Source: Naegleria gruberi (lineage: Eukaryota). From it: 64,000 nucleotides of DNA. Positions 5,338-45,079 of this stretch are shown here, piece after piece (position 1 is the stretch's first letter; each line of letters begins with the position of its first letter). The DNA is taken from assembly GCA_000004985.1 (NCBI GenBank), contig GG738889.1. The stretch is one strand, 5' to 3'. Below the pieces are notes generated by a model. It saw only the letters and a program-made list of their open reading frames with translations, did not search any database and was not told where the DNA came from. The translations under genes and the position numbers were made by a program.

Positions 5338-8300
5338 TTATGATATTTTTTTTAAAATGGTGACAGAATTTAATCGGAGTTCTTTAATGGTATCGGAAAC
5401 GGAAGTGTTTATTTGAAAATTGTAACTGATCTGATTACATTCTTNNNNNNNNNNNNNNNNNNNNNNNNNNNNNNNNNNNNNNNNNNNNNNNNNNNNNNNN
5501 NNNNNNNNNNNNNNNNNNNNNNNNNNNNNNNNNNNNNNNNNNNNNNNNNNNNNNNNNNNNNNNNNNNNNNNNNNNNNNNNNNCTGGTACCCAAGGTGCTG
5601 GTGGATTACATCCACCAATTGGTTCAATATCATCAGAGTGAGTAATTACGAGGGAATAATTTTGGTTCTTCAGCAATTTGTAAGCTGTTACTGAAACACC
5701 AACAAGTATGTCTTCATCAATTTCCTCAATTCTGACCTTTTCAACGTTATTTAAGTGATCACCGTCTGAGTTGTCATTTCCTGGATATCTAGTTGATCTT
5801 GTACTATTTTCTGAGAATACATAGGCATTCAAATCCAAATCTTGATAAAGCTCAAACTTGGTACTTGTGGCAGCCATGTCATACCAAGCAATTGTGGCAT
5901 ATAGGAATGTAGATCCAGAAGATGGTGATCTACCTGCAACTCTTCTAAAGCAATAGTTTTGTGTTTGACTTTGTGTGATGGTCTTTCTATCAACTGTGAA
6001 TAATTCAAAGGTTGAACCAACAAATTTAAGAACTGAAGACAAGGAAACGAGACCAAATCCAGTATAAGCATTTGGATAACCCATCTTTTTAAGGTCAGAC
6101 ATTGAGCCTCTTCCATCAAGTGACACCATACCCTTCAATGGTTGTGAGGAATGAACAAGGGTGGCTTTAAGCAATGGTCCAGATGGATTACTATGAACAG
6201 TACGAGTCATAAAATATTCACGAATGAGAGCTGTAACATGTTAATAAAAATTCAAATAATTCAATGATAACATACCCAAACTTGATGCAACTAGAGGTGT
6301 TGCCATGGAAGTTCCTCTGAGTGTCAATACAGATGCTTTGTTAGTTGGGGTTGGTCTTCCTGTTCCACATTGGAAAGTACTGAGACTACCATCAGAGTGC
6401 ATAGATTCAATTTCATAACCAGGAGCAACAAGATCAGGTTTGATTCTGTTACCAATTGCTGGTCCACGTCCAGAGAAGTAAGCTAAATTTTCCTTTGTAA
6501 AGTATTTCTTACTGTCAGAGTAAGTCTTCTTCATAAAAGTGCTGCAGCACAATGATTTAACAAGGTTGGTCTGGTCATCTGTTGTTCCCTTAAAGTTACA
6601 ACATTCCTCTTCTGATGAAACCTTGATGGCTTGGAAAATACTGGTAAAATCAACATGGTCAACTGCACTGATAAAACCGTCATTTGTAGTTTGAGAAGCA
6701 CCAACACTGATAACATTCTTTGAGGTGGTTGGACTACCAATATTACCAACATCAGATGTATGTCCTTCGTTACCAGCTGCAAATAAGACAACAAAATCAT
6801 CATGATCCCATGTGAATTTGTCGATATCTTGAGCTTTGGTATCATAGGTATTACAAATTTGGCAGCAAGATTTTCCAAACATTGTTTTACAGAAATCATT
6901 TGAAACAGTCTCTCCTGTTTTACCATAGTCTGTATCAATTGCCCATTTACAATTACAATTATATTTACAATTAAACACTGCAGAGAAAGAACATCCCCAA
7001 CTATTGGAATGGATTCTCACGTTTGCCTTTTGATATGGAATCTTGAACAAGTAATTGTACAAATCAGGTGGAATGAGAAGACTACTTCCTCCAGTTTTCA
7101 TAATGTCAGTAAAGAAGAGCTTGGCACCTGGTGCACCTCCATTATACTTTTTAAGATCTGAAAAAGTATCTGCACTTGTCAAAATGCTTCCAGCAATACT
7201 GCCAGCAACGTGAGTACCATGTCCATCACCACCATCTTGATCGTCTGACTTGTAAATATTTCCATACTTATCTTCGAGAGCCACAGTTTGATAAGAGACA
7301 ATCTTTCTGTGTTCCATATTGACAGTGTTGACTGGAACTTCATTATCAGGATCATGGAAGAAGCATTGGTCAGAATCAATACCAGTATCAGCTACACCAA
7401 CTACAACTCCCTTTCCTGTAATTCCATTCTCCCAAATGAATAAATTTGAGCTAGAATTGGCAGTGGTTGGAGTATCAGCATTAATTCCTTGCATAATAAT
7501 ATTTGGATAATAGTTCATGAGAGTGTATGGAAGTTGTCTTTCAACGCTTTGGATAGCATCATGTTTCATGATAATCTTCATGGCTTCAGAGGCAATCTTT
7601 GGAGAACAAGTGAACCCGATTCTATCTTGACCTTCCTTCTTGACTGAAAAGAATAGTGGTTCTTCATCCTTGGATAATTTGGCAATTTCGTTTGAGAACT
7701 TTTCTTGCAATTCCTTATTCAACTGAGAGACAATTGTTTCTGTTTCCTTTTCAATTGTTTCATCGAGAATGGCTCTCAAACTTGGAGTAATAGTGGCAAA
7801 AACTGAAATATGTGAAACAATAGATGATGCCACTGCACGAGTATGCCTATTTAGATTGGAATTTGCCGACTCGAATCTAGTTAATTTTTCAAGAGTTTCC
7901 TCCAATGTAGTTTCCTTAATTTCTGTTTGAGTCGTGGCAGCTTTGTTTTCCCACATTTCCTGCATCTTGGTAAAATCAAGATTGGATTTGAATTTAGAAT
8001 CAACTCTTCCAATCCACTCGATAGTGGATCCATACTCTGTTTCAATAGAGGCAAGTTTGGCCAACTCGGACATTTCGGATGGTGTTGCTCTAATAGCAAG
8101 GAGAACACCATTGGAAAGTGTTCCAATAATTGAATGCTCCAAAGCTTTTCCGAGTCTGTTGGCGGTAATTGCTACATTATTTACAGTATTAGTATTTACA
8201 GTCAATGCATTCAAGAGAGCACCATTAAACTTTGATAAATCCAAATTTGAGCTAGTTAATCTTACAAAGTATTGAATTGGTTCTTCTTTAGAATCTCTTG

Positions 8301-16706: not shown

Positions 16707-19700
16707 ATGCCAATTTTCATAAGGAGAACTACTGGGAGAGAACATTGTTTATGTAATACTAATAGTGAGGGATTGAGTAGGAGCTTGAAATCATCGCATT
16801 CACCTCAATATAATATTAATATTTCACAAAACTCATCATCAATTACTTCATCAAAACCTGCTTCATCGATGGTGAGGAATAAGACTACTATTTATACATC
16901 GATATTTCATATATTAGTTGTATGTCTATTCTTCCTACCAACTTGGTTTGCAGTTGTACTTTATGTGAATGCCCAAAATCAACCTTTCACATGTGGTGGC
17001 TATCTACCTGACGATGATAGAGTTTGTAATTTTAGAAAGGGAATGTGTATTGGAGAGGATATATGTGTTTGTTCAAATGGATTTCAAGGAGATTCCTGTT
17101 CTATAACCACATGTTTTGGTATAAGGTCAGATTCAACAAGTGTTTGTTCTGGAAGTGGATATTGTGAATCGTTGAATAATTGTACTTGTACATTGGGTTG
17201 GAAAGGTATTGCGTGTAATGAAAGAGTTTCAGATAGGAATAATCAATACAGAGCTTTGGAATCAAATAATTCCACAATTTCAGAGAATGTTGACTTTATC
17301 GAGGCAGTAATTACAATGCCAAATGTCAACCAATTCAGTTCATGTGGAGCCATTTCAGTAGATGGTTCTTCAAGTCACTCAGCAGATGGGAGACCATTAA
17401 TATATTATTGGTTGTTATTTGATTCGAAAATGAATTTACTTGCAGATAACTTCCCTCACCAACCAATCATTACTCTAGAATCGAGTATTCCATCAGGATC
17501 TTATAGAGTGGGATTGATAGTTCAGAATACTGTCTTGAAAATCAATAGTTCTATAACTGTTTCTCCAATTTTCACAAAGGCAACTTCACCACTTCCAATG
17601 TTGACCATGTATAGGGGAGAAACAGTGATTGAAAAGTATTCGAATGAGTTTCCAATAACATTGAAGAAGATTGTGAGTGATTCTTCATGTAAATCCTCAC
17701 AAGATGTTCTCCATATTGAATGGACCCAATTGAGTGGACCTTTCATCAATCACACTATTGATACTTTCAATAATTTGCATATTCCAAAGTTGAAAGTCTT
17801 TGGAAATTACACATACCTATTTAGAGTTTCAACATTTTACAAAATAAGTGCTAAAGTTTCTTTGAATGTGACTTTGAGTACAAATTCACCAAAATTGGAA
17901 TTGAATATTTTACAAACTGAATCTACAAGTGAGTTGACCACTTTACAAATTGATTATGTAGATCCAGAAGCTTTATATAATGAAGAATCGACAGAAGTTT
18001 GGAAATGGACTTCATCCAATCAAAGTCCTCAACTCTTAACAATACAAAATTTGTCCAAATCAAAATCTTTACAATTTTCAATTTCTTCTAAATTATTGGA
18101 AACAAGGGCTGATTCCATTATTTTAACTTTGGAAATTAGAAAGAGTGATGGAAGAAGTGTTCAAAAATCAACAACCATCAACTTTAACAATATTCCTCCT
18201 CTTGTAAATATTGTAAATATTGAACCACCTTCAAATGTCATTTTACCAGGTCAGCTCATTCCGATTCAAACTTTGACAATTTCAAACTCTTCGAACACAA
18301 CATGGATTCTGAATGGTAAGATTGTTGATTCTTCTTCCATTATCCAACAAGCTTCTCCAGGAATGGAAACAAATACCATCCTAATTGACTCTTCAAATTT
18401 GGAAGAAGGATCAGTCAACTCTTTAACAATAATTACCTATGATACCAAGACTGGTCTGTCAACACAGAATAGCCATTCATTCCGAGTAGCACAAATTGTA
18501 AGACAATTGATAACAATATTGATTACAGATATGGTTTTATAGACGATAGATCTCAATCAAAGATTGTAATGTACAATTTGGGAGAAGTTTACTCAACCAA
18601 AATGCCATCTCCTTTTACTGGAACATCTGTCACTTGTTTCTTTGATATTGTGGACAAAACCACAGGCGCATTCTCAACAACCTATTCCAATGTCACCATT
18701 TACAAACCAATCATTCAAAACTTTGCTGATATCCAATCAATTGTCCAAAAATGGGAAGATCAATCCATTCCCTATTCCTTAGATGGTGATTTCAGTAAGA
18801 GCATCTACCAATCAGCTTCCACTTCAAGAACTGATGCAGTTTTATTGAAAGAGGCCATGTTATCCAATAGTAGAAGTCATAGCCGTAAAGTTTCTGTTAT
18901 ATGCCTTAATGGTGTTGAAGTTTCAGGCGAGTGCAAATGTAAGGATGGTTGGATGGGGCAACGTTGTGAAATTTCCATTGGGGACTTTTCAAATATTCAA
19001 GGAACAAAGCTTTCAATATTGAGAGATATGATGTTTGTGGTGAATAGAACATATGGTATGAGTGATGAATATTTGTCCTTGATGTCATTTGCAATGGATT
19101 CCTTGTTAGTGAACTATCAATTTTTGGATACGAGTACTATATCAGAAATATTGAATAATTTGAATTTAATCTTGGATTATGCATTATCAGATGAAAATGT
19201 GAGAGTTTCAGTAGGTGTGGATACCTTACTTGATAATTGTATTGAATCTGCTTACAAATATATTAAGGATCGTCAATATGTCAACAATCATACTTCAAAC
19301 TCTTATAACTTACATGCTGCACTCAAGAAAGTATCCATGCTTCAAGCAAGAAGCTCTGTAATTGGAAGTACAGGAAAGAGTAAGAAGGGACCTTTCTTTT
19401 CTTCTGTTTTACATAGGAATACTGTTTATGATTTCCTAAGATCTATTATTGATCCTATTTCAGAGTGTAAAATAGTATTCGATTCTTATTTCTTTTCATT
19501 TTCTACTTTAAGTTCAACGATTGTGAAGAAACCTTTCGTTTCGGTGCTGACAGTTTCAGATGATGTGTTTTCACTGAATAGCAGATTGGGAATGACTCAT
19601 AAATCTGAAAGTCAAATCACGTATTCGAAACTTATTTCTCGAATAGTGTCAATTGATTTCTCAGAGTTACCAGTTCAAGTACATGGGAGTAAGATTTCCT

Positions 19701-20320
19701 ACATCATTCCTTATAACATTACTGACAAAGAAGAACCAGCCCAATTTACCAATTTGGAGTTAGCTGAAAAGAACACAACTGTCAGTTGTGGAGATTTCAG
19801 AAGTGGATCACCAACCATCTTGAGAAGTGATTGCACATTACAAACAAGAAATACCACTCATGTGGTTTGTACATGTGTTAGTTTTACAAATGTCTTTGTT
19901 GTAGAAACGACAGTTGTGACCTATCATTCCTATGTCTATGTGCTTGCCATTGTAGTTTCTTCCATTGTAGCTTGTGTTTTATTCTTGCTGATTGCTATTG
20001 GTGTACTAGTCACTATCATCATTAAAATTAGGAGAAACAAAGGAACAACTGCCAACAAACCAGAAACAGTAACAAATACTTCAACCTTCTCACTCAGAGT
20101 TCAGGAAGTTGAAATTGAAACATCATCCTATGGAAGGGGTCAAACACCTCTTGGTGTTTACGATACCATTACTCCACAAGAAAAATCTAATAGCTTTGCA
20201 GTTCAATCTGTTTATCATATGAATCGTAAGAGATCACAAGTGATTCCTCTTCGTATCGACTTGTTAGATGAGAAGTATTGTGATAACTTGTCGAGTAACG
20301 GATCTGATTGCGAATTATAA
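16707..20320 (+). CDS. Large type-I membrane glycoprotein with EGF-like Cys repeats, long ectodomain, GPS-like Cys motif, one TM helix and a short tail; 2 exons: join(16707..18497,18563..20320)
   Basis: Signal/anchor MVRNKTTIYTSIFHILVVCLFFLPTWFAVVLYVNA; the first in-frame ATG is 16707 but the likely start is 16869. EGF-like modules (CGGYLPDDDRVCNFRKGMCIGEDICVCSNGFQGDSC…CTCTLGWKGIAC and CKCKDGWMGQRC). Donor GTAAGA at 18498, acceptor …caatcaaag at 18562, a 65-nt intron; this is the only splice that joins the two open frames. TM VYVLAIVVSSIVACVLFLLIAIGVLVTIII followed by KIRRNKG. A 3' part is duplicated at 687..1773. Confidence 0.6.
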
Positions 20321-34732: not shown

Positions 34733-36949
34733 ATGTTGAGTAAATTGAGAGTGCTCGGAGTTGGTGCTAACAAACTTTCAAGGAATTTTCTATCGAATAG
34801 AAGTGTTTCCTTGTCTTCATCATCCTATTTATCAGCCAGATATTCACGATTCAGTTGTGCAATTCAAGTAAATAATGCAAAAGTCAATTCTTCACCATCA
34901 TTTAAATTTCCGAATTTAAATTATCAACATAATGAACAGAGAAATTATTCATCATCATCTTTTGATAATAACAATACTAATCAATCATCATCTTCTGGTG
35001 AAAAATCTAAATTCTCCTTCTTTAAATTGGTCAAGAAATTAGCCAAATATCTATTCCTATCAATCAGTGCAGTTTTAACATTGTTGGCAATTTGTATTCC
35101 ACCTGGTTTATTGGTAGATTTTGATGAGGAATCGAGACGTGATAAATCAGCACTATTCTTTTTGATTTTGGATTCCTATAATGATACTTGGAGTATTTTG
35201 AAGAGATTTGTCACTTCATGTATTTCAATTACACAAGTAGCTCAAGCTTATAGAGAAATGAATAAGAGATTTGAACAACAATTGAAGGATATTTCAACCA
35301 ACAAGTATACTGCTGAGGAGGAAGAGAAAATATTGATAGAATATATTAATGCAAGAAGAGAGACTAATTTGAAGGCAGCCAACTTGCTATTGGACTTGTG
35401 TTTGGTTAATGCTGGTGCCTATGTGAAAGCAGGTCAATATCTTGCCTCACTCAATTATGCCATTCCAAAGGAATTTACAGAAACACTTTCTGTTTTACAA
35501 GACAAGTGTCAACAACATGATTTTTCAGTGACTGAAAAGATTTTGAAGGAAGATTTTGATAAGGATTTCGAAGAAATATTTTCCTACTTTGAAAAAGAAC
35601 CAATTGCCAGCGCCAGTATTGCTCAAGTTCACAAGGCAGTATTGAGAGAATCTGGAAAGAAGGTTGCTGTCAAGGTACAACATCCAAACTTGGAGAAAAT
35701 GTTCAAATCTGATTTGAACACTATGAAATTCTTGATGTGGTCCACAAAGAAGTTTTTCGATTTCCCATTTTCATGGTGTTTACCTGAATTTGAAAAGTTT
35801 TTGATCAGTGAATTGGATTTTGTCAATGAAGCAGCCAATTGCACTCATTTCAAAACAATATTCAAGGATTATCCAAATGATCAAATTGATTCACCATATG
35901 TGCATTGGAATTTGACCAGTAAGAGAATTTTAACCATGGATTTTATTGAAGGAGTAAAATTGAACGACTTTGAAGGAATGAAAAAGTTGGGAATTGATGC
36001 TAAGGAAATAAGTCAATTGATTGTGGACAGTTATTCAATTCAGACATTTGTTCATGGATTTATTCACTCTGACATGCACAATGGTAACTTGCTTGTGAGA
36101 AGATCACCAAAAACAAACAGGGCACAAGTTGTCTACCTGGATCATGGATGTTACAAACACTTGGATGAAGAAACTAGAAAGGATTATTGTAATTTGTGGA
36201 AGGCAGCTATTTTCAGAGATCATGAAAATCTCAAACTCTACACTGAAAAGTTTGGAATTGATGGAAAGTACTATCCTCTCTTTGGTCTCTTCTTGACCTT
36301 CTCCAATTATATGGATAAGAGTTCAACAGCAATGGTCGATCAAAGAAAGAACATGTCAAAAGATGAAGTCAAGAAGATGTTCAACAATATTAGAGAAACC
36401 TTCTTCCCAGGCAGCAAACACAAAGCTCAAGATTTATTCAATATCATTGAAGAAATGTTCAAGAATATGAAATTAGATTTAATTCTTCTCATGAGAGCCA
36501 ATATTCAAATTAGATCCATCACCAAAGAATTGGGTAAACCAATCAATAGATTTGCAACAATGGTTGAATACTGTCTCAGAGGTTTGCACTATGAAAGAGA
36601 AAATTATGGAATGTTATGCAAACCACACAGAGAATCCGATTCCAAGACAGTTCTTGTCACTAAGGTTACACCAACTCCATTCTTCCACACTCTCACCTTT
36701 CAATTATTAAGATTCAAATGTGAATTACTAGCTCTGGAAGTTGTCTTTGTTTTGGCCAGAATGTCCATGAGAGTTTTGAACTTTTTCATGCCAGGTAACT
36801 TTGAATCTGAAGAAGCCATGTCTGATGAGAGAAGAGAAACTGAACATGTTAAGGCAAGAATTGAAGGAAGAAGAAAAATGGAACTTGAATCAAAGGAAGA
36901 CATGGAAGAATTATCTACTGAATCAACTACTCCTGCTCCTGCTCAATAA
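34733..36949 (+). CDS. ABC1/ADCK-family atypical protein kinase (aarF domain)
   Basis: ATG at 34733. Mito-like N-terminal extension and a TM segment. ABC1 signature …ASASIAQVHKAVLRESGKKVAVKVQHPNLEKMFKSDLNTMKFL… and kinase-like core (…HSDMHNGNLLV…DHG…). Single exon. Confidence 0.75.
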   Translation: MLSKLRVLGVGANKLSRNFLSNRSVSLSSSSYLSARYSRFSCAIQVNNAKVNSSPSFKFPNLNYQHNEQRNYSSSSFDNNNTNQSSSSGEKSKFSFFKLVKKLAKYLFLSISAVLTLLAICIPPGLLVDFDEESRRDKSALFFLILDSYNDTWSILKRFVTSCISITQVAQAYREMNKRFEQQLKDISTNKYTAEEEEKILIEYINARRETNLKAANLLLDLCLVNAGAYVKAGQYLASLNYAIPKEFTETLSVLQDKCQQHDFSVTEKILKEDFDKDFEEIFSYFEKEPIASASIAQVHKAVLRESGKKVAVKVQHPNLEKMFKSDLNTMKFLMWSTKKFFDFPFSWCLPEFEKFLISELDFVNEAANCTHFKTIFKDYPNDQIDSPYVHWNLTSKRILTMDFIEGVKLNDFEGMKKLGIDAKEISQLIVDSYSIQTFVHGFIHSDMHNGNLLVRRSPKTNRAQVVYLDHGCYKHLDEETRKDYCNLWKAAIFRDHENLKLYTEKFGIDGKYYPLFGLFLTFSNYMDKSSTAMVDQRKNMSKDEVKKMFNNIRETFFPGSKHKAQDLFNIIEEMFKNMKLDLILLMRANIQIRSITKELGKPINRFATMVEYCLRGLHYERENYGMLCKPHRESDSKTVLVTKVTPTPFFHTLTFQLLRFKCELLALEVVFVLARMSMRVLNFFMPGNFESEEAMSDERRETEHVKARIEGRRKMELESKEDMEELSTESTTPAPAQ

Positions 36950-37232
36950 TTTATAGATTTGGAAAATGGTGAATTGTAAATACAAATTGTAAATATTAAA
37001 TGTAAATGATTCAATATTAAATCAATAGTGTAACATTTATGTCTGTAATTAGCCATCAAATAATATTGTAATAGTGCAATAGATTGAATCATTCACTCCG
37101 TGCCAATCAATTAGACAAGGGCGTACGATTGTATGAGGGAAATAAATGGCGAAAAATTGGGATTACGGCTCAATTATGTTCTATTAATTGTTTTGGATAA
37201 TTTTAATACATAAACAATAAAAAACAAACAAA

Positions 37233-37385
37233 ATGAACTCAAACGGTGGATGTGGATGCTCTAATGGTGCTACTTGCAATTGTGGAAGCAATTGTGCATG
37301 CAGCGGATGTGGTAAGGTTGAAGAAAAGCCACAAGAACAATCATGCTGTTCTGGCGGTTCATGCAGCAGAAAGTAAATGTTGTAA
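37233..37385 (+). CDS. Metallothionein-like Cys-rich micro-ORF, not in the ORF track; contains an internal 1-nt frame offset
   Basis: ATG at 37233 gives MNSNGGCGCSNGATCNCGSNCACSGCGKV…. A second Cys cluster (SCCSGGSCSRK*, stop at 37375-37377) is in the +1 frame. Removing one g from ggttggaag (~37317-37322) yields a canonical two-cluster 47-aa MT: …CSGCGKVEEKPQEQSCCSGGSCSRK*. Confidence 0.45.
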
Positions 37386-37908
37386 ATTTAGTGTATAAAA
37401 TAGAAAAACAACAATTATTGAGTGTTTTGAATAATAAATACAATAGTGTTTATTTAGAAAATTATTATTTATATTTTTATTTTAAATGATTGAAAATTAT
37501 CGTTCCGAACTTGCATCAAACATGTGTCTCTGAAACGAGTCAACGATGAGAAATCATGTTATTTGAATTAATCTTGAAACCAATTAATTTGATGATATAA
37601 AGATATATTGCTTCTCCCTACAATGTTTATTTCTAATCTTCTTCATCTGAACATCATTTATCAAGTGAGGAACAAGTGAAAAGCATTTACAAAAACCAAT
37701 TGCACACTTTACAAAATGTTGATGAACCACCCAGTTGCAAACCAGAAATGAAGGCTTCATGTTGAGAACTTGTCTTATCGCTTGCTGATCAACCAGAAGT
37801 TTGCTGCCAGCAGAAGCAGGAACTTGCCAGCACAATCATTTTAAAAATAAAACACTTTAAAAAAAATTCCTATAACTCTTTTCACCACCACATACAAACA
37901 CAGTCAAA

Positions 37909-40900
37909 ATGTCCAACTTTGATGTGAATTCAATCATTGAAAAGGCTGATTCCAAGGATAAGGATATTCGTCATATGGCCCTCTATGACTTGAGTAACGA
38001 ATTACAAAAGGAAAATTTAAAGTTGNNNNNNNNNNNNNNNNNNNNNNNNNNNNNNNNNNNNNNNNNNNNNNNNNNAATTATTATCATTATTGATCACTTG
38101 AAATATTTTTAACTCTCTCTTCCATCAATTATGTAATATNTGTTTTATCACATTCTATGTGATTAATACAACAAATCTCTACATTGATCATCAACATTGT
38201 GCGATTCACAATTTAATTGTGATTCCTCGTGATGATAACAACAACAACAATAATACTTTTTGATCTTATATAGTTTGCCTCACCTTGTTAACAAGATGAG
38301 CAAGGTTCAAATTGAAAACAGTATTTCATCACTTAGTAGCAATATTCTCAAGGGTGAAGATGAAAAGAGAGACATTGCTGCTATTGCTTTAAAGACTGTC
38401 ATTTCTGAAATTCCAATGGAAAATGCTCAAGCTCCTATCAAGAAATGTATTACACCACTCCTCCAAGGTCTTTCAAGTGATAATCCAGAAATCAAGTTGG
38501 TTGCTCTTGATGTTTTGTCTGATTTATTGGCTCGTTTCGGCGCTATGGTTGCTGATGAACATGAAAAGTTACAAAGTGCCTTCTCTGCCGAATTAAAATC
38601 AAGCAGAGTTTCCGTTCGTAAAAGAGCTATTGCTTGTCTTGCTGCCTTGTCAGTTCATACTAGTGATAAATTATTTGATGCCTTGTTGACAAGTGTTGTC
38701 AATGGTATTGATAATGTTATCAAGACAATGAAGAAGCAAAAGGATAATAGCAAAGTTGAAGAACTTTCTACTTATATTCAATCTTGTAGTGCTATTTCAA
38801 AGACTGCTGGTCACAGATTTGGTAAATATTTGGCTAGAATTATTCCATTGTTCATGGATGCTGCTGAAATTATTGCAGGATCTTTGGATGAAGATGATGA
38901 AGAAATGGTTGATACTAATACTGAAATTAATGATGAAGTTCGTGAATATATTACTCAAGCTTTCGAAGCCTTTGTTACAAGATGTCCAGATGAAGTTGCC
39001 AGATATGTTGATTACGTCATTATTATTTGTAAGGAATACCTCGAATATGATCCAAACTATTCATATGATGATAGTGAAGATGAAGCTGAAGAAGCTGATG
39101 TAATGCAAGATGATGATGATGAAGATGGTTTGGGAGATGATCTTGATGAAGGTGGTTTATCTGAAGATGATGATGTTACATGGAAAGTTCGTAGATCTGC
39201 TGCTAAATGTTTAGGTTCATTGATTAGATCTAGACCAGAATTATTGGCATCTTTCTATACTGAATTGTGTTCTGAAGAAGATATTTCATTGATTCGTCGT
39301 TTCAAGGAAAGAGAAGAACCAGTTAAACTTGATATTTTCAATGTTTTCATTGATTTGTTGCATCAATCATACTCTACAAAGACTTCTCCAAGTGGTGAAG
39401 TTTCATACAAGCAACATGATGAAGTTAAATTTGTTGAACAAACAAAGGATGCTATCATGAAACGTATTAAGAAGCAATTGAAAGAAAAGTCAGAAAAGAC
39501 TAAAGTTGGTGTTTTCCAAATTTTAAAGTCTTTGGTTGTCACTATGCAAGGTGGTTTGTCTAAATATATTAAGGATTTAGTTCCTTCTGTTTGTTCCGCT
39601 TTAGCTGAAAAGGGAGAACAATCTTCATTGAAATTAGAAACTTTATCATTCTTGAAGACTTTCATTCAATTCCACAAGCCAGAAGAATTTAAACCACATT
39701 TGGAAACTTTAATGAAGGCTGTTTTCAATTGTGTTAATGATAAGTATTACAAGATTATCACTCAAGCTTTAAGAGTTTGCGGTGAATTGGTTTTGGTTGT
39801 CAAGACTTGTTCAAGTGATTCTAATTATGGTTCTCTTGTTACTCAATTACAAAATAACGTTTATGAAAAGTTGAAGATTCAAGATATTGATCAAGGTGTT
39901 AAAGAAAGTGCTATTACTACAACTGGTTTAATTGTTTCTCACTTGGCTGACAAGTTACCAAACTTGAAGGATACTTTAAATATTTTAAAGGAAAGATTAC
40001 AAAACGAAATTACTCGTCTCACCACTGTTAGAACTTTCACTGTTATTGCTCAACATAAGGTTGATATTTCATCTGTTTTGGTTGAAACTGTCAAGTTATT
40101 CTCTGATTTCTTGAGAAAGGATAACCGTGCTCTTAGACAAGCTGCTTTGGCTGGTTTGAGTCAATTCTCTGTTTCATACAGTGCTAAGATTGATTCTGGT
40201 TTGTTCAGTACTGTTATTGAAGAAGCTGCTGAAGTTATGAATGAAAAGAAGTCTGACTTGCATTTGGCTCATTTGGCTTTCAAGTTAGTTAAACAAATTG
40301 TTGATGCTAATCCATCAACTTTATCTTTGATTCAAAAGTTCGTTTTGCCAAAGATTTTGGAATTGTTGGCAAGTCCAACTTTGCAAGGTAACTGTTTAGA
40401 ATCTCTCTTGGTTGTTTTGGCTATGTTGGTTTCATCAGTTGGTTTTGATAACATTTTGAAACAAGTTTTGGCTATTCCAAAGGAATCTAAGCAAGTTTTC
40501 ACTAATATTGGTAAGGCTGTTGCTGCCATCTGTTCTGCTGGTTCTCAATCAAATAAGACTTCAACTATTGAAAAGTTTGCTAAGGATTTAAAGTCAAAGG
40601 ATGATTCTGCTAGAATGTTGGCCTTGTTCACTTTGGGTGAAATTGGTCGTACTATTGATTTATCTTCATCTGGTACTGTTAGTCAAGATATTGAAGCTTG
40701 TTTCGAAGAAGAAGGTTCTGAAGAATTGAAGAATGCTGCTTCATATGCTCTTGGTAATATTTCTGTTGGTAATTTGGCCAAGTTCTTACCACAAATCATT
40801 AAGGGTATTAGAGAAAGTCCAAAGAAGAAGTACTTGTTGATCCACTCTTTGAAGGAAGTTATTACTCAAGCTGATGCTAACAAGCTTAAGGAATTCATTC

Positions 40901-42063: not shown

Positions 42064-43390
42064 ATGTCTCAACTAAAGGATCTTCCAACCGAACTTGTTG
42101 GTACCATTTTGTCCTATTCAACTCTTCAAGATAGTTTTCTATGGAATACAGTCAGTAAACAATGGAATCAATTGCTACGTGAATATGTCTTTTCTCGTGT
42201 CTTTACCTATTGTGAATTGCATGCTAATAATGATTTTTCCTATTCCTCTAAAGAAATCAAGGAAATTACAAACCAGGATGATGCTGGTGATGATGATGAT
42301 GATGAATATGGTGGATATCAATCCTATCAATTGGAAAATATCTTGATGAGAAGAGGACATTCAGCAGTCAGTCTCGATGATGAATCTAAAATTTTGGTAT
42401 TTGGTGGATTTTGTGGAGATAGACATTGTAATGAATTGTTTGTTGTAGATATTGATAAAAAGACAGTTGAAAGAAAGGTTGAGAATAGAACTAGTGATAA
42501 AGATGTTTTAGATGAGAGTATCATGATGGGTAGATCTTTCCATCCAATGGTTTTAATTTCTGAAAACAAGTTTCTTGTAACTGGTGGATATTGTAATTAT
42601 ACTTTGGACAATTGTCCAAATTTGAGAGATACTTGGATTATTGAATTTAGTGAAAATGATTTCAAATTTACCAAACTTAATCAATCGGGAGATGTTCCAC
42701 CTCCAATGGAAAGTCACTCATTGGTTTATTACAATGGTTATTGCATCTCTTATGGTGGAAGTAGCTTTTTTGAAGATGATGATTTGGGAATGAAACATAA
42801 GGATGTCTATGCATTGAATGTTGAGAGTGGATCGTGGACGAAACTGAGAATTAAACAACAGGAAAGAGGACCTCCTGCCCTTACTGGCCATTCATGTCAT
42901 CTCATTGAGGGAACAAACAAGATGATTCTCTATGGTGGTTACGATCAGGAAAATTCCACTCACAATTCATTGTGGATGCTTCACATTGTTCTCCCAGATG
43001 AAACCAAATTCTTCAATGAGTTTAGTTACTGGGAAGAGATTATTCCACAAACCAATTCCTATGTTCCTGAACCAACATTGTATCATCGTTCTCTATTATT
43101 GCAGAATAGATTATTGGTTGTTTATGGAGGTGCATTGGATTGAGAGTTCCATTCACACTGATCAATTCTCTGTCTTTGATTTGGAAACTAGAAAGTGGAC
43201 TAATCTATTGAATGATGAATGTCTTTTGAAGAAAGATCCAGAAGAGGCTCCAATCAGAGTTTATGGACATACATTGACCTATTTACCAAAGAGTGGAAGA
43301 TTTGTGGTTTTGGGTGGATCCAGTTCTGATTCTGATTATTACAAAGGATTCTCTATGAGTGTTGGAATCTTCTCTCCATTTGTAAATTAG
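42064..43390 (+). CDS. F-box / kelch-repeat protein with a single-base frame break near 43130-43145 (assembly indel or pseudogene)
   Basis: ATG at 42064. F-box (LKDLPTELVGTILSYSTLQDSFLWNTVSKQWNQLL). Kelch-type blades (…ILVFGGF…, …FLVTGGY…, …CISYGGS…, …MILYGGYD…, …LLVVYGGALD*). The next blade and the C-terminus continue in the +1 frame (…WIESSIHTDQFSVFDLETRKWT…RFVVLGGSS…FSPFVN*, stop at 43390). No GT..AG intron fits. Confidence 0.6.
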
Positions 43391-45006: not shown

Positions 45007-45079
45007 GCCGACATAGCTCAGTTGGGAGAGCGTAAGACTGAAGATCTTAAGGTCCCTGGTTCGATCCCTGGTGTCGGCA
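45007..45079 (+). tRNA. tRNA-Phe(GAA): tRNA-Phe (anticodon GAA), 73 nt, no intron
   Basis: GCCGACATAGCTCAGTTGGGAGAGCGTAAGACTGAAGATCTTAAGGTCCCTGGTTCGATCCCTGGTGTCGGCA. It has a 7-bp acceptor stem, a D-arm GCTC/GAGC, an anticodon stem TAAGA/TCTTA with loop CTGAAGA, and a T-loop TTCGATC. It is nearly identical to eukaryotic tRNA-Phe. One T:T mismatch sits in the T-stem. An oligo-T tract lies downstream (45083-45086). Confidence 0.85.

Follow-up and report, generated by a model that had tools for sequence, protein, structure and literature searches.

A conserved metallothionein-like gene in Naegleria with a seven-cysteine box resembling fungal copper-thioneins

We analyzed a 64,000-nucleotide stretch of the Naegleria gruberi nuclear genome (assembly GCA_000004985.1, contig GG738889.1; hereafter the window) and identified a short Cys-rich open reading frame (ORF) with the features of a metallothionein gene. 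Six-frame ORF listing and translation place an uninterrupted 47-residue frame at positions 37233–37376 on the plus strand, with the predicted product MNSNGGCGCSNGATCNCGSNCACSGCGKVEEKPQEQSCCSGGSCSRK. The metallothionein-like coding sequence is complete and lies in a single exon, with the ATG at 37233–37235 and the stop codon TAA at 37374–37376, and an in-frame TAA five codons 5′ of the ATG (37218–37220, plus strand) makes a 5′ extension of the ORF impossible without splicing. As an initial annotation of this DNA had correctly noted, the Cys-rich micro-ORF has its start at 37233, opens with MNSNGGCGCSNGATCNCGSNCACSGCGKV and continues to the cluster SCCSGGSCSRK, after which comes the stop codon. 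Cys makes up 10 of the 47 residues (21%) and is arranged as three CxC motifs, one CC doublet and one CxxC-spaced pair (C23 and C26). The first part of the protein is a 7-Cys box formed by residues 7–26 (CGCSNGATCNCGSNCACSGC; 37251–37310, plus strand), the predicted core of a Cu(I)-thiolate cluster, in which the spacing [CXC]-X5-[CXC]-X3-[CXC]-X2-C is the same in all three Naegleria species compared below. Alignment of the three species delimits a Cys-free hydrophilic linker of charged acidic and basic character (residues 27–37, GKVEEKPQEQS; 37311–37343, plus strand) and a C-terminal CC-x4-C tail (residues 38–44, CCSGGSC; 37344–37364, plus strand). The initial annotation had described a textbook two-domain metallothionein; the likeness to metallothioneins stands, but the second "domain" is overstated since the three Cys of the tail would not suffice to build a cluster of their own, and a 7-Cys box with a conserved Cys-bearing tail is the better description. 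Tryptic cleavage of the 47-residue protein would include the peptide VEEKPQEQSCCSGGSCSR.

The reading frame is intact in the assembly. It had been proposed that the two Cys clusters sit in different frames and that one g must be dropped from the string ggttggaag to restore a 47-residue protein with the linker KVEEKPQEQ. That protein and linker are encoded as the sequence stands and no base removal is needed: at the alleged site of the frameshift the DNA is ggtaaggttgaag (ggt aag gtt gaa gaa aag). Within the window, ggttggaag is confined to two minus-strand sites, 4077 and 42082; the locus requires no correction, and the reported frame break was a reading error. The "50-codon ORF" of the initial annotation is a separate, overlapping GTG-initiated frame in the +1 register (37246–37398) that was apparently conflated with the real ORF. 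An independent metagenome contig (L001; European Nucleotide Archive ERZ929261) from an environmental N. gruberi-like strain, 99% identical and with the same gene order, carries a near-identical 47-residue peptide (P0002) that differs by C39Y. Alignment of this contig with the window over 2,629 bp shows 16 substitutions, a single intergenic indel of 8 bp and no 1-bp indels, and ORFs of 738–1,177 residues are unbroken near the metallothionein-like gene, so the systematic homopolymer indels suspected earlier are not borne out. The 8-bp difference is an insertion of AATAGTGC in the window relative to L001, a local tandem duplication in intergenic DNA 5′ of the gene (37070–37077). The earlier reading, in which a 1-base homopolymer indel disrupts a metallothionein gene or a frameshifted variant is expressed, has a negligible probability given the continuous ORF, the shared frame of the L001 assembly and the placement of both clusters in one frame in the orthologs of two other species, and it finds no support in the sequence beyond the overlapping GTG frame that may explain the confusion.

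Several intrinsic properties set the ORF apart from its surroundings. The back-translated 7-Cys scaffold matches once in the 64-kb window and in 0 of 100 shuffles, and a Cys-rich micro-ORF of this kind is far beyond chance. Guanine–cytosine (GC) content is 45% in the ORF compared to 26% and 30% in the flanks, the codon log-likelihood of the ORF frame is the highest of the six frames (+9.0 bits), and the start context caaaATG resembles that of neighboring genes. In a separate chance test for the tail, stop-free stretches of 19 codons with at least three Cys and no aromatic residue or His made up 0.12% of windows. No second copy of the metallothionein-like ORF was found in the 64-kb window, and an Rfam search returned no family at the ORF locus.

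We compared the neighborhoods of orthologs of the upstream ABC1 kinase gene in N. lovaniensis (L242), N. fowleri (L245), Willaertia magna (L243) and Acrasis kona (L244). Both other Naegleria species carry an ortholog of 45 residues: MNSQNCGCCNGGACNCGSNCSCKGCGQEKVEEKKSCCSGGSCQRK in N. lovaniensis (L242 12680–12817, PYSW02000052.1:129726–129863; tblastn E = 4e-20) and MNSQGCGCCNGGACNCGSSCSCKGCGQEKVEEKKSCCSGGSCQRK in N. fowleri (L245 12815–12952, VFQX01000052.1:512503–512640; tblastn E = 1e-20). All 10 N. gruberi Cys residues are kept in both proteins, an eleventh is added by an S10C exchange that turns CGCS into CGCC, and the SCCSGGSC tail is identical in all three species. The three indels that separate the sequences are all whole-codon and lie in the N-terminus and the linker, and 18 of the 29 nucleotide differences between N. 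gruberi and N. lovaniensis fall at third codon positions. Nei–Gojobori ratios of nonsynonymous to synonymous divergence (dN/dS) for the three species pairs are 0.133, 0.147 and 0.098, at dS values of 1.14, 0.91 and 0.29. Between N. lovaniensis and N. fowleri, nucleotide identity is 93.5% in the ORF and about 64% in the 200-nt flanks, a value close to the composition background, and the flanks are unalignable across the three species. The downstream neighbor genes also differ between species, which indicates that the ORF travels with its own flanks.

These comparisons bear on whether the frame encodes anything at all. A chance ORF in intergenic or low-complexity, TGY-rich DNA would be short, unannotated and without a Pfam match, as this one is, and (TGC)n-type repeats yield many Cys-rich frames in large databases. 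However, a dN/dS of 0.10–0.15 with near-saturated dS, retention of every Cys between flanks that cannot be aligned, a scaffold that shuffling did not reproduce, a sequence that is not a simple repeat and codon usage that fits the genome make a chance ORF very improbable, and ORF 37233–37376 is almost certainly a real protein-coding gene, presumably transcribed and translated.

The encoded peptides fit the general description of metallothioneins. At 47 residues in N. gruberi and 45 in the other two species they are well within the 10 kDa limit of these proteins, a Cys content of 21% in CxC, CC and CxxC arrangements lies in the customary range of about 15–30%, and where metallothioneins have few or no aromatic residues and His, the count of Phe, Trp, Tyr and His is zero in all three Naegleria peptides. 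Among 177,635 Protein Data Bank (PDB) sequences, the sole match is the Neurospora crassa Cu-metallothionein 1T2Y, aligned without gaps across residues 5–28 with seven of seven Cys in register and 15 of 24 positions identical. A small profile search recovered the N. crassa copper metallothionein, the Agaricus protein MT_AGABI and Fusarium homologs, and the mature Fusarium sequence (...GDCGCSGASSCNCGSSCSCSGCGK) is identical to N. gruberi at 17 of 24 positions and shares the CSGCGK end. When Cys residues were placed at random, all seven fell in register in only 5 of 2,000,000 shuffles. Holding Cys fixed and scoring the remaining positions, identity was 10/17 for Fusarium (P = 0.0005) and 8/17 for N. 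crassa (P = 0.023), and the agreement extends to residues other than Cys. The N. gruberi peptide also fits the motif C-G-C-S-x(4)-C-x-C-x(3,4)-C-x-C-S-x-C, which we take to be the strict signature of metallothionein Family 8 (fungi-I in the scheme of Binz and Kagi), while the N. lovaniensis and N. fowleri peptides (CGCC..., ...CSCKGC) do not.

A comparison with exemplars of five fungal metallothionein families printed in PMC4755600 gave the same assignment. The Family 8 exemplar scored best of the five (z = 5.9–7.1, P < 1/2000), and the remaining exemplars stayed at z ≤ 2.2 except for Cup1 (z = 1.9–3.8). Residues 7–26 fit exactly the printed Family 8 Cys pattern X2-[CXC]-X5-[CXC]-X3-[CXC]-X2-C-X3 (PMC4755600). 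The peptide is probably a metal-thiolate metallothionein, as judged from its composition and Cys arrangement, and the earlier description of an unannotated metallothionein-like micro-gene holds up, with purifying selection in three Naegleria species and an N-terminal cluster that fits the Cu-metallothionein family of Neurospora, Agaricus and Fusarium.

Searches for further relatives returned little. A word-indexed search of 5.8 billion proteins found only P0002, which is 98% identical. Scanning metagenome and genome contigs with the back-translated Family 8 signature gave at least 120 loci in each set, swamped by (TGC)n and (GCC)n repeats, and filtering the listed loci on the non-Cys spacers left one chance bacterial match (L128) within a 176-residue, aromatic-rich frame. 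Signature scans are uninformative on the true distribution of such genes, and profile methods are nearly blind to peptides this short.

Immediately upstream of the ORF, and serving as the synteny anchor for the comparisons above, is a separate gene for an ABC1/ADCK atypical kinase (34733–36949, plus strand), whose 738-residue ORF is identical to N. gruberi XP_002673634.1. In all three Naegleria species the metallothionein-like ORF lies 200–290 bp 3′ of this gene on the same strand, an arrangement that, together with a donor-like GTAAG string at 37312 in N. gruberi, would suit an exon of a larger spliced gene, such as an alternative 3′ exon of the kinase. We consider this highly unlikely: the kinase ORF ends in a stop codon in all three species, the short ORF starts at an ATG of its own whose A-rich surroundings are typical, with the in-frame stop five codons before it in N. 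gruberi, promoter-like motifs are conserved in the interval that separates the two genes, and the flanks, at 26–30% GC, contain stops in all frames. The potential splice donor itself (GGTAAG, 37311–37316) was rejected, as it is unconserved in the other species and both halves of the ORF that it would divide are in frame and under selection. Taken together, the comparisons instead point to an independent gene under purifying selection.

The intergenic motifs keep their position relative to the ATG across species. A CCAAT-box-like element, CCAATCAATT (37103–37112, plus strand), is a candidate promoter element, with CCAATCAAT at −130 in N. gruberi, −133 in N. lovaniensis and −137 in N. fowleri, and AAATGGCGAAAAATTG (37144–37159, plus strand) is a second candidate promoter or regulatory element, with AAATGGYGAAWAAT at −89, −93 and −100 in the same order. 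A same-distance shuffle test of the upstream motifs reached the observed value in 0 of 300 shuffles, and unrestricted local alignment of the upstream regions gave no significance (58 of 1,000 shuffles). The promoter function of both motifs is putative. Downstream, an AATAAA 56 nt past the stop codon (37433–37438, plus strand) is a candidate polyadenylation signal, found 53 and 72 nt past the stop in N. lovaniensis and N. fowleri.

We interpret the locus as probably a genuine single-exon metallothionein gene with a Neurospora-type box and likely copper sequestration, a reading drawn from sequence comparison and against which a number of observations count. The hidden Markov model search against metallothionein families that the initial annotation had recommended gave nothing, with zero Pfam families at E ≤ 10 (including PF00131, PF01439, PF02069 and PF11403); precomputed Pfam domains are likewise blank for the N. 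crassa and Agaricus proteins, and Pfam appears to be without a model for Family 8. Exhaustive phmmer comparison with 1.84 billion representative proteins retrieved only P0002 and P0003, the latter a 568-residue bacterial repeat protein that we rejected as a composition artefact with no Cys-cluster pattern. The PDB match to 1T2Y has an E-value of only 0.03, a weak score for which the short length and biased composition of the peptides are responsible. In the L001 strain, the sole difference inside the ORF is G37348A (L001 position 2519), the substitution that replaces one Cys of the tail CC doublet by Tyr (C39Y); it may be a tolerated polymorphism, or it may have arisen through an error in metagenome assembly. 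In Willaertia and Acrasis, a search of the ±10 kb around the kinase ortholog yielded no copy, a negative that holds for this interval only. Animal metal-response elements, yeast Mac1 copper-response elements and Ace1 motifs are all absent upstream of the ORF, where the two conserved motifs are candidate regulatory elements. Published Naegleria copper studies credit detoxification to a Cu-ATPase and describe no Naegleria metallothionein. Finally, metallothioneins converge readily, and the likeness to Family 8 need not mean shared descent or shared metal preference.

Much of this bears on one alternative, to which we assign a modest but real probability: a conserved Cys-rich peptide whose main role is different, such as binding Zn/Cd as a thionein, buffering zinc or thiol redox state or donating metal like a metallochaperone, and whose resemblance to Family 8 arose by convergence. 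The metal preference of metallothioneins is not reliably readable from sequence, the box spacing also occurs in the Zn/Cd-binding β-domains of vertebrates, and the 10–11 Cys of the protein with its tail are compatible with an M(II)3Cys9–10 cluster. The missing copper-response motifs and the attribution of Naegleria copper detoxification to a Cu-ATPase point in the same direction. On the other side, the non-Cys residues also fit the fungal Cu-thioneins (P = 0.0005 in the fixed-Cys comparison), and the characterized proteins cited here as carrying this box are all Cu-thioneins. By analogy with these proteins we lean toward a copper-preferring protein, and copper preference is the least secure step of the interpretation.

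Again by analogy, the protein most likely functions in sequestering copper as a Cu(I)-thiolate. Metallothioneins in the apo form are disordered, and folding takes place only around the metal. In the model we favor, the 7-Cys box would wrap a polynuclear Cu(I)-thiolate cluster of 5–6 Cu, as Family 8 boxes do, and the linker would lead to the CC-x4-C tail, which may fold back to supply three further thiolates. The tail could raise the capacity of the protein, with some 8 Cu(I) conceivable by comparison with Cup1 and its Cu8Cys10 cluster, or could cap the cluster, and the whole protein would sequester roughly 6–8 Cu(I). As the tail is under the same purifying selection as the box, it is part of the protein. 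Characterized systems provide the reference values: the N. crassa metallothionein binds 6 Cu(I) and the Agaricus protein 5.8 through seven thiolates, and Cup1 forms Cu8Cys10 (PMC13107397), while the 7-Cys boxes of the Cryptococcus neoformans metallothioneins form Cu5 clusters to which additional 3-Cys segments add Cu(I) (PMC4755600). Metal binding, stoichiometry and the role of the tail in Naegleria are extrapolated from these proteins. In the cell, the protein might buffer or sequester cytosolic copper, and possibly Zn or Cd, alongside the Cu-exporting ATPase.

In this intron-containing eukaryote, apparent frame breaks elsewhere in the window are explained by introns or scaffold gaps. In a CAND1-like gene downstream of the metallothionein-like ORF, a frame change coincides with a 50-N scaffold gap (38026–38075) and an intron-like acceptor (...atatag), and gap and intron together account for the break. 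For ORFs 42064–43143 and 42932–43390, 102 candidate GT..AG introns could join the frames and the choice among them is ambiguous. The window contains 289 N in total, with runs at 637–686, 1774–1823, 5445–5582, 38026–38075 and 38140. Positions 702–1773 and 19071–20145 contain a dispersed repeat in direct orientation, about 1.1 kb long (97–100% identical, 18.4 kb apart), one frame of which reads as a Cys/Phe/Leu-rich ORF (YKCLCCRN.SCDLSFLCLC...); the first copy is flanked by the 50-N gaps at 637–686 and 1774–1823, and the pair may reflect a repeat element or a duplication introduced by the assembly. A (TGT/TGC/TTG)n tract at 227–300 reads as poly-Cys in one plus-strand frame and corresponds on the opposite strand to a CAA/CAG (poly-Gln) coding repeat, which is ordinary low complexity with no relation to the metallothionein-like gene. 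The only Rfam or ARAGORN match in the window is a tRNA-Phe (GAA) gene at 45007–45079 on the plus strand.

The gene appears to have escaped both annotation and the literature. The annotations of all three Naegleria species lack the gene, nr has no entry for the N. gruberi peptide, an exact peptide look-up among 153 billion called genes gave no record, and exhaustive search found no Naegleria protein resembling the peptide other than P0002. In full-text searches of the literature, no account of a metallothionein from Naegleria came up. The string "thionein" occurs zero times in a paper on copper metabolism in N. gruberi and N. fowleri, and a paper on copper detoxification in N. fowleri describes a Cu-exporting ATPase and mentions metallothioneins only for other organisms. 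That these copper studies name a Cu-ATPase and antioxidant responses and no metallothionein is explained by the absence of the gene from every annotation. A review of microalgal metallothioneins counts two GenBank proteins labeled metallothionein in Naegleria; since nr does not contain the present peptide, those entries must be different proteins.

What the sequence comparisons suggest is new here is a Family 8-type Cu-thionein box outside fungi, joined to a conserved Cys-bearing extension. We raise, as a speculative extension that we regard as doubtful, that the 7-Cys copper-thionein box is no fungal invention and instead has either an early eukaryotic ancestry spanning Discoba and Opisthokonta, overlooked because genes of 25–50 residues are not called, or a history of horizontal transfer between fungi and Naegleria, and that in N. 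fowleri it provides a hidden copper defense during brain infection. If this were true, the N. fowleri gene would be analogous to the Cryptococcus virulence factors CMT1 and CMT2. Ancestry, horizontal transfer and convergence may each account for the resemblance. The N. gruberi genome serves as a reference for the early evolution of eukaryotes, and N. fowleri is a lethal brain pathogen; adding this gene would complete the copper-handling inventory of these amoebae and let existing transcriptomes and proteomes of Cu-treated cells be re-analyzed for an obvious candidate effector. Extension of the "fungal" Family 8 box to a very distant eukaryotic lineage also bears on the old question of whether short Cu-thioneins are an ancestral trait or arose several times.

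The closest known counterparts are the fungal Family 8 proteins of N. crassa (CuMT, P02807/1T2Y), Agaricus bisporus and Fusarium, whose Cys scaffold is identical to that of the Naegleria box. N. gruberi and Family 8 share CGCS, CNCGS and the closing CSGCGK, and in both the spacers are small Gly, Ser, Asn and Ala residues with no aromatics. They differ in extent, gene structure and host. Family 8 is defined as a single 7-Cys unit of about 25–26 residues that ends after the last Cys, and the fungal proteins stop 1–2 residues past the seventh Cys (25–26 residues, with CG[SK]K in all those recovered), whereas the Naegleria proteins run 19–20 residues beyond the box through a linker and a tail with three further conserved Cys. 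An intron interrupts the N. crassa gene but not the single-exon Naegleria ORF, and the hosts of Family 8 are non-yeast fungi, whereas Naegleria is a heterolobosean within Discoba. Public records of the fungal family are themselves faulty: the annotation of the N. tetrasperma protein (P0011) fails to splice out the intron, and spurious N-terminal extensions of 30–40 residues precede MAGDCGCS... in several Fusarium entries (among P0007, P0009, P0010 and P0012), errors that illustrate the under-detection of Family 8.

More distant systems share parts of this design. In vertebrate metallothioneins, the first seven Cys of the N-terminal part of the β-domain are spaced alike, a similarity long noted for the N. 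crassa protein. The vertebrate proteins differ in having 20 Cys, two full domains and a Zn/Cd preference, and the Naegleria peptide does not match their Pfam family PF00131. Saccharomyces cerevisiae Cup1 (Family 12) has a similar total of liganding Cys (Cu8Cys10), and its C-terminus ...ETKKSCCSGK is identical at 8 of 9 positions to the ...EEKKSCCSGG tail of N. fowleri and N. lovaniensis (P about 0.005). The corresponding N. gruberi segment (37323–37358, containing EQSCCSG) shows no significant likeness (P = 0.21), the Cup1-type core Cys arrangement is absent from N. gruberi, whose own pattern is unlike it (whole-protein z = 1.9), and we regard the shared tail as a curiosity and not as homology. 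The nearest parallel to a Neurospora-type box with added Cys is found in C. neoformans CnMT1 and CnMT2 and Tremella mesenterica TmMT, which combine Neurospora-type 7-Cys boxes with Cys-free spacers and smaller Cys segments, among them a 3-Cys segment of TmMT thought to bind extra Cu (PMC4755600). The genes for these proteins were missed or mis-annotated by automatic pipelines, and in C. neoformans, a pathogen of the brain, the CnMTs act as virulence factors (PMC4755600). CnMTs and TmMT comprise 3–6 tandem boxes, 122–257 residues, Pro-containing box variants and many exons, whereas in Naegleria, without tandem amplification, one box is joined to one Cys-bearing tail.

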